Source: Octopus vulgaris (taxonomy: Eukaryota). From it: a stretch of DNA of 64,000 nucleotides. The stretch is from positions 198,400,001 through 198,464,000 of the forward strand of contig OX597815.1 of assembly GCA_951406725.2 (NCBI GenBank). The letters run 5' to 3'. Position 1 is the first letter of the stretch; each line of letters begins with the position of its first letter. The position numbers were made by a program, and so were the translations under genes. Below are positions 1,197-51,098 of the stretch, piece by piece. The notes under the pieces are model-generated. The model was not told where the DNA came from, ran no database searches, and was given only the letters and a program-made list of their open reading frames with translations.

Positions 1197-1599
1197 TAAT
1201 AAATATTAGGGAATAAATCCAAATTTACAGGGAAAAAATCAGATTTAGGATTAAATCCAATTTTATAGTAAAATATTATAAAATATTATTAGAGACAAAA
1301 CCACTATTTTGCAAAACAAACAAGGAAAGACTTAATCAATACATAAAATTTTAATAAATAGTCAAAAAACCGCCACTACAATTGTTTCTTGTCTTGATCG
1401 ACAATCTTCAGTGGATTCAATAAGTCAGTTTCAAATTATGAAACTGACTTATTGGAAGTCCACCTGAAGATTGTCGATCAAGACAAGAAACAATTGTAGT
1501 GGCGGTATTTTTGACTATTTATTAAAATTTTATGTATTGATTAAGTCTTTCCTTGTTTGTTTTGCAAAATAGTGGTTTTGTCTCTAATAATATTTTATA
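1197..1599. mobile_element. Fold-back (PLE-like) mini-element in a (TA)n tract: inverted repeat 1277-1599 plus an unpaired tail of about 80 bp
   Basis: Arms of about 160 bp are near-perfect reverse complements around the loop aatta (1434-1438). The tail 1197-1276 is homologous, in reverse, to 36890-36930. (TA)n flanks both sides. Confidence 0.8.
1460..1502 (+). ncRNA. Minimal type I hammerhead ribozyme motif
   Basis: ccac-CTGAAGA-ttgtc(gatcaa)gacaa-GAAA-caattG-TA-gtgg. Stems I and II are intact, stem III is palindromic (acaattgt), and the cleavage triplet is GUA. A mirror copy lies on the minus strand at 1373-1414 with one C missing from stem I. Confidence 0.85.
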
Positions 1600-1671
1600 C
1601 ATATATATATATATAATTAGTGAATGGAAGAAATGGAGCTGAACGAAGATTCTACAGAATTCCTTTTATTA

Positions 1672-1756
1672 CATTATACACATGTTTCAAAGGCCACAAA
1701 TTTCCAAATTCTGATTGAATAAGGATACCATATTGCAGCTTTCTCTTCAGGAAAAT
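1672..1756 (-). ncRNA. Hammerhead ribozyme motif with extended stem II (degenerate stem I)
   Basis: Minus strand: CTGAAGA gaaagctgcaa ... ttgtggccttt GAAAC atgt GTA. Stem II pairs with G.U wobbles; stem III contains the palindrome acatgt. Confidence 0.55.
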
Positions 1757-2189
1757 CCAGGAATTACGATGTCCAAACAACACAAAGGCGCAGCAAGCAA
1801 CACGAACAAGAACGCTCCCTAGGAGCCCATGAAGTGGGGGTAAACTCCAACCGTGTTTTTTCTGCTGTGATTTTTGCTACCCAGGTATCGGTTAAACTTT
1901 TGAATAATATGTAACAAGATAATTCATCTTTCCATTTCAACAAATATATATATATATATATATATATATGAATATATATACATATATATATAATGTTTAT
2001 ATATGTATGTTTGTATGTATGTCTGTATGTATGTATGTATGTATGTATGTATGTATATATATATGTATGTATATATATATATATATATATATATATATAT
2101 ATATATATATATATATATATATATATATATATATATATATATATATATATATATATATATTTTTTATATATATATATATATATATACTT

Positions 2190-2405
2190 TGATAGGTTTC
2201 ATAGATAGATATCATCACCTGGCGAAGTCATTCAGATCAGGTATCTGACAACATAGCCCACACGAGTAGAGAGTTATTGTTTCTAGCCTAAGGTTCATTC
2301 GGGATTTCTTGAAGGAATTTGTCCAAAGACTTCTTAAACTTTATGGGGTCTGTTTCTGCTTTAATGTGTTCTGGTGTAATGTTAATGAAAGCCGAGCCAA
2401 TTCAG
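2190..2405 (-). mobile_element. CR1-like LINE 3' end relic
   Basis: Minus-strand translation IGSAFINITPEHIKAETDPIKFKKSLDKFLQEIPNEP*ARNNNSL matches the CR1-type ORF2 C-terminal pattern (FN.LP...FK..LDKFL..IPDEP...NSL). Confidence 0.7.
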
Positions 2406-48260: not shown

Positions 48261-48680
48261 TGTAGCTGCAGAGACAGAAATAAGTGTCAATTCTCCAATA
48301 GGTGTAAAACAAACAATGTAATATACCAGTGCAACGAAAAATGAAATGATACTGAGACGAAAACTCACATGATACTTAGACGAAAAATGACATGACACTT
48401 AGACGAAGAATAAAATGATACTTAGATACGATTCCCACCAATCTACATTTAGAAATAGAAGTAAAGGAAACTCTACAGGATTTAGTAGCTACATCTGGGA
48501 ATTAAAAGAAAAGAGACATCAACTATAGTTTAGAATGGCATATCCTAGCTAAAACTTAGTCTTATACCATTAACAATAAGCGCTGTGAGCTCTGTATAAC
48601 TGAGAAACTAATAATTCTAATGACCAAATCACCTCCACTCAATAAAACATATGAAAATATTCTTTAGTTTCTGTAAAGGC
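48261..48680 (+). pseudogene. Penelope-like element GIY-YIG endonuclease relic
   Basis: CSCRDRNKCQFSNRCKTNNVIYQC, then RYDSHQSTFRN..STGFSSYIWELKEK / INYSLEWHILAK..KRCELCITEKLII..LNK. This is the Cys-rich linker plus VIY and RY..H..F pattern of PLE endonucleases. Frameshifted. Confidence 0.75.
48336..48430. repeat. Four-copy 23-bp minisatellite
   Basis: gaaaaatgaaatgatactgagac / gaaaactcacatgatacttagac / gaaaaatgacatgacacttagac / gaagaataaaatgatacttagat. Confidence 0.85.
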
Positions 48681-49055
48681 CGATGCGTATTCTCTAAGTT
48701 TCGTTACATTCGCTCATTCTTGTATACACCACTATCTCATAGCTTAAATATTATTAGCAGACCTACTTATCACCGTATTACCTCTCCTTAACCTTCCCAA
48801 ACCAAACTAGTTTACGCCTATCTAACCTACATTATTTAATAATAAATAATTAATATGTCTTCAGTTGGCTGCTCTTTACCTATCCGGAAATATTGCCAGA
48901 AATATCAAAAGTTTTGTTTCTATGTAACCTATATATATATATAGAGAGAGAGAGATATAGATGTATGTGTGTATGTGACAAAAATGTGACCGCGTGTGTA
49001 CCGTAGCCGATTTTTTTCCTCCGTCTTCCCTTCCTTGGATCTTTCCTTTTCCTAT

Positions 49056-49090
49056 GTTTCTGACGAAGAGCTCCGCTCGAAACGTTAGAT
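49056..49090 (+). ncRNA. Minimal hammerhead motif in a PLE-LTR-like segment (about 48975-49195)
   Basis: gttt-CTGACGA-a-gagc(tcc)gctc-GAAAC-GTT-agat, with palindromic aacgtt. The segment ends in (TA)n. Confidence 0.7.
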
Positions 49091-51098
49091 CCTCCTTTTT
49101 TCTTTTCTTTCCTGAGCGTCCACTAACACTATACTTGTTCCACGTCCCCGTGTTGTTGTGTTTTCTCGTTGTGTTTTCATGTTTGGATTAACTTTATATA
49201 TATACATATACATATATATATATACATACATTTTTCAGATACATTTTAAATATATATATATATATATGTATGTGTATGAATATGCTTGTGTCTGACTGTA
49301 CTAGAATTGTCTCTAACTCCGATTACTAGGATTTCATTCAAATAGTTTACTCAAACTAACTTTACAATAGAATATACACATTCTAATTTCTTGTGCAATA
49401 TGATTGAACCCAGGGTCATCTTGTTGTAGAGGTGATGATTGAATGTCTCGTCTTGTCTGTGGCTCCTAAACAAGAAGTTGTTACGTAAATGACTGACTGG
49501 ATGTCATGAACCAAGTTTTTATATTCTAGCAATATATATCGGCGTCCTCGTGTTTATATTGTCTACGCAATTTATGTAAAACACTACTTTTTAGTATCGC
49601 TTGACAGACTGTTACTCACATATGTCACTCAAAAAGAAAAGGAAAACCGTGCAACCAAACAGCGTTTCTATAAATATGAAGGAGAGAATTTGTGTTAGAA
49701 ATTTATTACATAACTCAAACCTCAATTCTTATCGTAACGGCCCATAAACTACTGGATCATCGGAGAACTTGGGAGCGATTTGATTTCATTCTTCAATTTT
49801 AAAGTACATGTAATAGAATGTGTTTCTTTCAAACCCCGTTTTTTGATCGATGCGAAGATTTGACCTCAGCTCTGTAAACTAATATAAAACACATTAATTA
49901 TGTATTAAACACACAGAATATAATATCGGATATTCACATTCATGAAATGTGGTTTTTACTGAGAAATTGATAAATATATTGCCTTTTCTAAACACATAGT
50001 GCATTGCCGTTCGTAGTATGTATCTGTATGCATACATCAACGGCTTAGCGAACAGATTTGGCAAACCAACAGGAGATCTCTTATAACAGTGTTAAAAATC
50101 ATTTTCCATGGAACTGTGACCTTTAAATAACTATGAAAGATTATTTTTGCACAGATCTCGCCCACCCCAATATTATTAAAAATTCATGCAAACAAGCATA
50201 CAAAGAGAAACAAGATCACATACAACTCGTGCAAGTCGATAAAATAAATATGTCTATCAAATTCCGTTAAGAAATTGTATAAACATCCATGCGTAGCAAT
50301 AGATAAATCCAATCAATAACCGACAACCTGCACTTATTAGTACACATCCTCTATCCGTTTGTGCCTCACATACTCTCTAACATAGTCACATTTTATCATA
50401 TTCATAAATACACACATGTACTGAGTTATATACTTACAGACATAAAATCAGCTACACGTACGTCTGTGTCTGTGTGTATCTGCTGTGTAAAGTGAGTGTG
50501 TATTGTATAATCAAACAAAATATTATAGACTTTAATGCGTTGCCCAATAAAATAAATAACTCTCAAAAGAAATGAGATATAAAAGTAGACTAACAGTCAG
50601 AGTATGAAGTTGGCTTTACTATTTATAGCTGTGCTTATTCAACTACGTTATTTGATTAAAAAGGAAAATGATATATTGTTTGAATTATTCTTAGTTCATT
50701 TTTTTTTACTACAGTTTTAAGCGTCACATGAGGGGAATTTCTGTTTGTCTATATTTGTAATTGTGGTTAATATCAGGTAATTTCATGTAAGTAAAATTAA
50801 TTGAAGTTTTACATATTTCGAATGTAATGGTGCAGATTCCAAATGCAATACTACACAATTCGAAATTATTTAGTTTCATATCTAGGTTCGATATATATTT
50901 GGGAAAGCTAATAATAACGCTTTTGAATCAAGTAATTGCTGATGTAACGTACTGATTAACACCATATAAGTAACAGTCGTTATTGTCAAAAGCTGACTCT
51001 CTGGGAAATTCTCGTGAGGTAAGATTCATTTCCGAGTTCTGTCTATGTTTCATGGGGCCTGAGCGGTTTCGTGGAAGATTGTCTCCAAAGTGCGAGCT

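Follow-up and report, generated by a model that had tools for sequence, protein, structure and literature searches.

Fold-back elements with hammerhead-like motifs in an Octopus vulgaris locus as probable 3'-end copies of Penelope-like families

A 64,000-nt stretch of the Octopus vulgaris genome (contig OX597815.1:198400001-198464000; genome ~2.8 Gb), hereafter the window, is AT-rich, abounds in (TA)n runs and short interspersed elements (SINEs), and carries a series of palindromic elements with motifs resembling hammerhead ribozymes. What are these elements, and how did their inverted arms arise? A first-pass annotation of the window had read them as one population of non-coding, retrozyme-like mini-elements mobilised in trans. 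The analysis reported here points with fairly high confidence to a different origin: they are probably 3'-end copies of Penelope-like families, each consisting of a pseudo-long terminal repeat (pLTR) with its motif and a tail, and their mirror arm was likely rebuilt at each insertion into (TA)n. The elements were labelled F1 to F10 (Table 1).

Coding parents and mirror arms

Genome searches were carried out per family, and the 40 top candidates of each were scored; first-look candidates numbered from hundreds into the thousands (F1 530, F2 509, F3 981, F4 153, F5 2903, F6 1834, F7 2089, F9 1880, and F10 871). Four families led back to reverse transcriptase (RT) frames. Two full-length F3 loci (L224 and L227) held a 784-aa frame matched by Pfam RVT_1 (3e-07) and GIY-YIG (2.9e-06). 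F6 copies continued upstream through an extended untranslated stretch before reaching RT and GIY-YIG frames; one of them (L130) was a young element with these frames between two pLTRs and one frame break, and several others formed 2-kb inverted arms. The pLTRs flanking the open reading frame (ORF) in L224, L227, and L130 were direct repeats. RT and GIY-YIG frames also lay upstream in one F7 locus (L226). An RT with a C-terminal GIY-YIG endonuclease was seen for these three families only, by Pfam for F3 and by motifs and tblastn for F6 and F7; Pfam missed the Hydra-like fragments, and a homologue search returned mostly unnamed proteins. F2 led to a 441-aa Hydra-like RT frame in L219, with no endonuclease seen in this single long copy. 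There the RT frame stops at the thumb and is followed by non-coding sequence (L219:6451-8800), and the F2 parent is, on this one copy, possibly an endonuclease-less element. At least four of the nine elements listed in the first-pass annotation are therefore ends of coding elements. The link to Penelope-like elements that it had drawn is borne out by these parents; its single population of non-coding mini-elements is not supported, F2, F3, F6, and F7 being truncated, inverted ends of coding elements.

Clades were assigned in a tree-free manner, by sequence motifs as listed in section 11 of PMC8557442. On this basis F3 appears to be Neptune-type, sharing GLKF, DKG, a CX4CXXC linker, and GIY-YIG with cysteines inside it. 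F6, F7, and F2 appear Hydra-like: all three share the RWK-like motif (RW), DKT, and (TA)n targets, and the CxCx5C linker was seen in F6 only; the F7 copy lacks the linker cysteines, and the long F2 copy the endonuclease. In the Neptune-type element, a 472-aa first frame overlaps the RT/endonuclease frame in the -1 frame (L224:3618-5033 and 1333-3684, minus strand), and a U-UUU-UUA-type run in the overlap is identical in three copies (L224, L227, and L223). Judged from sequence, this is likely a programmed frameshift; no strong downstream hairpin was predicted after the run. A frameshifted ORF1 is mentioned in the legend of Fig. 1 of Craig et al. 2021 (PMC8557442). One F3 subfamily (L088, L089, and L090) had motif and tail in common, and its upstream sequence was different and hairpin-forming.

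Self-comparison of the window recovered all six inverted repeats that had been described (F1 to F6). The plan ascribed to them, with an unpaired tail and (TA)n flanks, held for five of the six: F5 lacks a (TA)n flank and is bounded by a target-site-like 12-bp direct repeat (32108-32119 / 32481-32492). F4 had been drawn too small (23622-24075), and its right arm is split by a SINE insertion at ~24150-24352. F7, listed without a mirror arm (1672-1756), is actually a fold-back whose second arm is the last 103 nt, and a seventh fold-back, F10, had been overlooked. Arm length ranged from ~70 bp to 2 kb and junctions varied between copies, which suggests that the fold-back was likely built at insertion; it is not a fixed family structure. 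Copies had an inverted, 5'-truncated partner and an optional tail, F9 being mostly without partner.

Several other repeats adjoin these elements. SINE-like repeats of 184 bp and 138 bp are abundant and occur in tandem in the window (4668-5223, 53398-53769, and 3096-3361); one of them splits F4 and forms the F5 spacer (32276-32352), which is derived from this other SINE. F1 and F7 adjoin each other on a common (TA)n run, and such neighbourhoods of unlike families are frequent (L043, L046, L076, L080, L290, and L300).

Hammerhead-like motifs and their frequency

Motifs were sought with a strict descriptor of the minimal hammerhead with an extra nucleotide after A9; a descriptor lacking that nucleotide gave one motif. 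The strict descriptor matched three motifs in the window, compared with a mean of 0.02 in 200 local block-wise dinucleotide shuffles, none of which reached three (0/200), so that the motif rate is above that of dinucleotide-shuffled sequence. A widened descriptor, fitted to the window's own motifs, gave six matches at five loci. Core, stems I and II, palindromic stem III, and UH site passed the strict descriptor in F1, F5, and F9 and the widened one in F2 and F6; the motifs of F4, F7, F8, and F10 were assigned by eye at family level, and F3 departs at position 13. Hammerhead-like motifs with a palindromic stem III are thus present, as had been claimed, but the CUGANGA core ascribed to all nine is not universal, because F2 has CCGAUGA and F3 has UUGAUAA with GCAA replacing GAAA. 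The window copies of F3, F4, and F7 are decayed.

Rfam hammerhead models gave zero matches among the 150 of 327 matches listed for the window and zero in targeted scans, which I take as a limit of the models and not as counter-evidence; the short copies, or stumps, gave only sub-threshold microRNA-type matches. Single motifs folded with z-scores of -2.2 to +0.9 relative to shuffles, most no better than these. When two copies were folded together, stem III was predicted to pair between copies for F1 and F10 and not for F5, F8, and F9. Homology at the 3' end, independent of any descriptor, led to sister families of F1; these kept the core but had other stems, and their stem III was altered yet still palindromic. 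The motifs are candidate hammerhead ribozymes by their fit and their excess over shuffles; published cleavage of such motifs was slow and dimer- or protein-dependent (Cervera and de la Pena 2014; Frangieh 2024).

As a sample of the genome at large, 60 stretches of 10 kb (600 kb) were taken from contigs C1-C24 at preset, round-number positions. The widened descriptor found 21 motif matches at 18 loci, compared with 1, 1, and 0 in three shuffles. Among 29 short fold-backs, 14 abutted (TA)n against a background of 7.7%. Of 27 motifs found with a still wider, shuffle-free descriptor, 17 were followed by (TA)n at a distance of up to 250 nt, compared with a background of 20%. The TA targeting proposed earlier is supported. 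The window held seven short fold-backs compared with 3.1 per 64 kb in the sample (Poisson p ~0.04), and five motif loci compared with 1.9 (Poisson p ~0.046, with a descriptor tuned on the window). The very high density noted in the first-pass annotation thus stands as a ~2.3- to 2.6-fold excess over the sample, but the pattern is genome-wide and not exceptional; the window as a special hotspot was rejected, since fold-backs occur genome-wide and the enrichment is only ~2-fold. Extrapolation from the 600 kb would put such loci at ~10^5 genome-wide. The random sample also contained at least five further hammerhead-like families, many with a U3-A8 core (L230, L241, L246, L248, L255, L267, L271, L274, L278, and L281).

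Table 1. Elements and hammerhead-like motifs in the window, ordered by position.
Feature	Position	Strand	Remarks
F1 fold-back	1197..1599	-	direct arm and 80-nt tail (~1436 to 1197), inverted arm ends at 1599; flanked by (TA)n left and right
F1 inverted repeat	1277-1599		by self-comparison
F1 twin motif	1373-1414	-	stem I broken
F1 minimal motif	1460..1502	+	intact; strict descriptor
F7, 3' end of coding element (Hydra-like by motifs)	1617..1945	-	long arm 1846 to 1617
F7 motif	1674..1753	-	long stem-loop II; stem I damaged in window copy
F7 short opposite arm	1843-1945		last 103 nt of tail in reverse orientation
F2 fold-back	8257..8463	+	inverted repeat 8257-8392; ~70-nt tail
F2 motif	8322..8359	+	variant core CCGAUGA, 2-bp stem II; widened descriptor
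F10 fold-back	15546..15845	+	inverted repeat 15546-15800 in self-comparison; copy of 361-bp non-coding tandem family, starts at unit position 168
F3 fold-back	15999..16240	+	inverted repeat 16000-16195; ~40-nt tail
F3 variant motif, UUGAUAA...GCAA	16069-16098 and 16101-16128	- and +	both arms damaged
F4 old fold-back	23497..~24457	+	inverted repeat 23626-24071; family 76-86% alike
F4 motifs	23627-23715 and 23982-24070	- and +	decayed; long loop II
F5 fold-back	32117..32483	.	inverted repeat 32146-32483; tail on left arm
F5 minimal motif	32390..32431	+	intact; strict descriptor
F6 fold-back	41716..42404	+	310-bp arms (41716-42335); 69-nt tail
F6 motifs	41759-41836 and 42215-42292	- and +	widened descriptor
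F8 single arm	42474..42609	+	between (TA)n runs; a relative in L221 is a fold-back
F8 motif	42552-42608	+	by-eye fit only: 3-bp stem II, near-palindromic stem III
F9 element	48979..49194	+	~215 bp, motif-bearing; mirror arm mostly absent in family
F9 motif	49056-49090	+	strict descriptor

Clustered 5' ends and a proposed insertion route

The 5' ends of the short copies were clustered. All 24 F1 loci started within ~10 nt of one point, 22 of them with a mirror arm, and their junctions were of several types with 3-5-nt microhomologies. F3 copies ended at -3 to -7 from the core in 14 of 22 cases; a TATA-like box, itself preceded by CCAAT boxes, lies ~29 nt before this point. For F2, 16 of 23 ends fell at -4 to -17, and for F9 all 18 at -58 to -87, with the initiator-like hexamer TCATTC at -87. 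The same hexamer marks the F6 cluster at -123 to -145 (9 of 29 ends; 12 more lay at >=1350 nt, 5 in between, and 3 were shorter). Summed contig depth in sequencing run X16, which is not copy number, was 337,000-563,000 for the motif segment, 21,700 for the sequence immediately before it, and no more than ~3,200 for the ORFs; the fall was ~15-fold ahead of the F3 cluster point and >100-fold over the ORFs. The accumulation of short copies immediately after initiator- or TATA-like motifs suggests complementary DNAs (cDNAs) running from the start site to the tail.

A route to such insertions can be proposed from published biochemistry. In vitro, AT-rich DNA is cut by a Poseidon protein on both strands, each of which it also extends, cDNA starts at two internal RNA sites bounding the tail, 5'-shortened templates give shorter products, and ribozyme cleavage is dispensable (Frangieh 2024, PMC11167929). 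By analogy, the element protein would nick both strands of AT-rich DNA and prime two cDNAs at two internal start sites, yielding one tailed and one tail-free arm. In short copies, priming would take place at the tail of a transcript whose 5' end lies nearby, and neither cDNA would reach beyond the transcription start, which lies immediately before the ribozyme; in Drosophila Penelope, the pLTR is known to contain a start site (PMC2377424). The two cDNAs, joined head to head via 3-5-nt microhomologies, would form a palindrome of 150-600 bp with the start site close to its centre. The hammerhead-like motif would be a passenger, carried along because of its place between start site and tail, and its cleavage would not be needed for the structure. 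An intact motif was held by only 6 of the 29 sampled fold-backs, and the F10 copy in the window, which begins downstream of the family motif, is motif-free; the ribozyme is therefore not needed within an insertion.

Several points weigh against this account. No coding parent was present among the fetched loci of F1 (24), F4 (16), F5 (24), F9 (20), and F10 (30), nor for F8, a family that was not searched genome-wide. The proposed start sites were placed from genomic copies and from contigs of sequencing runs, none of them on record as RNA, and the initiator and TATA readings go by general consensus motifs. Scoring the best 40 candidates favours copies resembling those of the window and biases the 5'-end tallies; shorter F1, F3, and F10 copies were under-sampled because the queries for these families had the fold as their starting point. 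A (TA)n tract in the F2 reference makes seven values of this family (-178 to -313) unreliable, and the F7 ends showed no clear cluster with a long-biased query. The clustering itself could instead come from RT stalling at structure. Finally, the core was no better conserved than its flanks in F2, F4, and F9, i.e. in three of four family tests, the fourth being F5, in which the core was more conserved at non-CpG sites (p=0.019, uncorrected). This last comparison neither supports nor refutes ribozymes, because dead copies are expected to decay evenly.

The strongest competitor, which I nevertheless consider unlikely, is close to the first-pass view: the short hairpins would be self-propagating, non-coding, retrozyme-like families with an internal initiator, mobilised in trans. 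The fixed 5' starts of F1 and F9, parent-free among 24 and 20 loci, would fit this, as would the F10 multimers with a motif per unit and the large excess of motif-bearing stumps over ORFs in contig depth; the Drosophila Penelope promoter is internal (PMC2377424), and stumps that retain the initiator might therefore be transcribed. However, highly identical coding parents exist for four families, junctions vary among copies, and most F5 and F9 copies lack the mirror arm. The arms of a perfect fold-back RNA would moreover be expected to pair with each other and sequester the motifs.

Markedly less probable still is that short copies end where the RT stalls at the ribozyme structure or runs off a ribozyme-cleaved RNA end. 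F10 monomers do start 18-56 nt past the predicted cut, beyond a strong hairpin (20 of 24 loci, with a query biased that way), F10 copies longer than one unit fit a circular or multimeric template, and the ends of F2 and F3 copies are no more than 20 nt from the core. However, stumps of F1, F2, F3, F6, and F9 include the motif in full and have their ends before it (by 123-145 nt in F6 and by up to 87 nt in F9), and a cut end therefore cannot explain them; in vitro, ribozyme mutants left the insertion products unchanged (PMC11167929). That the palindromes are DNA-level hairpins akin to miniature inverted-repeat transposable elements (MITEs), or assembly artefacts, with motifs by chance, could draw on the poor folding of most single motifs and the lack of Rfam hammerhead matches, but is so improbable as to be rejected, given the motif excess over shuffles, its recurrence across many families, one-sided tails, arms diverged to 83% in old copies, identical tail-to-(TA)n junctions in independent sequencing runs, and RT-coding parents, which already refute it for F3, F6, and F7.

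There is also a broader reading, which I put forward tentatively and with slightly more doubt than trust: the ~10^5 start-site-to-tail palindromes may record two-strand priming by Penelope-like proteins in vivo and map the transcription start of each family. Their machinery would be parasitised by F5, a tRNA-headed SINE whose 3' end has a Penelope-type hammerhead and which would stand for a class of SINEs driven by Penelope-like elements and not by long interspersed elements, and by F10, a 361-bp retrozyme inserting as inverted multimers.

Non-autonomous candidates and known systems

F5 consists of a tRNA-like head, a (TAA)n linker, the motif, and the tail. Of the 24 top copies, 11 had a head piece upstream, as did 21 of the 39 arms in total, and two of three heads in the 600-kb sample were followed by an F5 arm; the window copy has no head. 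Heads carry A- and B-box-like motifs; ARAGORN called two of the four tried, with lowered thresholds only, and Rfam none. A crude scan found target-site duplications at 2 of 24 F5 loci, and most copies lack the mirror arm. By its sequence layout, F5 appears to be a tRNA-headed, SINE-like family with a hammerhead-like motif.

The F10 unit is 361 bp long, non-coding, and arranged in head-to-tail dimers or trimers, which form part of inverted structures lying in (TA)n; its two alternative 3' ends are at unit positions 318 and 361. Each unit has one motif with a 6-bp stem I, a palindromic stem III, and a predicted cut after position 140; 21 copies were found in 9 of 30 loci, six of which had been chosen for tandem spacing. 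Non-coding tandem units, each with a hammerhead-like motif, are what defines a non-LTR retrozyme. No short-unit tandem arrays were seen among the fetched copies of F1-F7 and F9, and F10 alone among the families searched forms these arrays. F9 has a fixed start at its initiator-like hexamer, and a mirror arm is rare. F5 and F10 likely borrow Penelope-like machinery in trans, and F9 and F1 are probably also non-coding and moved in trans; non-coding families moving in trans, as had been proposed for all, are thus likely represented by F5 and F10 and probably by F9 and F1.

Much of the architecture is known. Inverted truncated copies, tails, and (TA)n targets of Penelope-like elements were described by Craig et al. 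2021 (PMC8557442), and inverted pLTRs, together with pLTRs that mobilise non-coding sequence in trans, by Arkhipova et al. 2013 (PMC3846280). The elements here share with the endonuclease-bearing Penelope-like elements of these two accounts the 5' truncation, the adjoining inverted copy, the optional one-end tail, the (TA)n targets of linker-bearing clades, and trans mobilisation by pLTRs. They differ in tail length (~30 to 160 nt compared with 30-40 bp) and in the dominance of very short palindromic stumps with clustered 5' ends, a clustering not found in the available text of either account; the accessible literature on junctions and start sites likewise gave no report of clustered Penelope-like 5' ends.

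As for the motifs, Cervera and de la Pena 2014 reported minimal hammerheads in pLTRs, thousands of them solo, and opposite-strand pairs 100-700 bp apart. The extra nucleotide after A9, the short palindromic stem III, the U3-A8 variant, many unrelated families per genome, and mostly single motifs of truncated elements are common to both sets. C at position 4 (F2, F9, and F10), GCAA (F3), and a 40-60-nt loop II (F4, F6, and F7) were not found in the text of that paper at hand, and these core variants may already be in Lunse et al. 2016 or in published supplements; supplementary lists (PMC4209133, PMC8557442, and PMC13282606) may also cover some of the families.

Retrozymes have been derived from pLTRs (bioRxiv 10.64898/2026.07.22.740005). 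F10 resembles the animal non-LTR retrozymes (PMC7229834 and the preprint) in its non-coding head-to-tail units, a motif per unit, and pLTR-like ends, and is unlike them in its minimal-type motif and its arrays of 2-3 units that lie inverted in (TA)n, all on DNA evidence; the other families differ from retrozymes in not being tandem. F5, in which a tRNA-like head and a hammerhead-like motif are combined, is closest to the hammerhead-bearing SINE-like elements of Schistosoma (PMC6765202) and the tRNA-derived octopus SINEs of Ohshima and Okada 1994; it differs in being dispersed instead of tandem and in its Penelope-type tail and inverted copies. An octopus repeat annotation counts 31 Penelope-like families with recent activity and 893 SINE families left unclassified, ribozymes being unmentioned in the part available. 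For a tRNA-headed SINE driven by Penelope, the accessible literature, with subscription journals and Repbase largely outside it, gave only the Schistosoma analogy and a remark on retrozymes as SINEs dependent on Penelope-like elements. Architecture, motifs, and TA targeting are therefore already published; what is new are the two candidate non-autonomous families and the start-site-to-tail model.

The origin of inverted, tailed Penelope-like insertions is an open mechanistic question (PMC8557442), and thousands of young stumps with clustered ends and varied junctions make the two-cDNA model, in which synthesis runs to the transcription start, testable. If true, a Penelope-driven, tRNA-headed SINE adds a pairing of SINE and driver besides those with long interspersed elements. 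The natural core variants offer a ready-made set for cleavage assays, and annotators could easily take the stumps for MITEs or microRNA hairpins.

Three further features of the window stand apart from the ten elements. A decayed GIY-YIG remnant (48261-48628, plus strand), similar to that of F6 (37-56% in pieces), ends in (TA)n just before F9 and is probably a separate old Hydra-like copy. An inverted repeat with 34-bp arms (17240-17392) had neither a motif nor a second copy among the fetched loci. A 154-aa frame (38856-39320, minus strand), with zero Pfam matches, presumably resembles a fragment of a mariner-type transposase.

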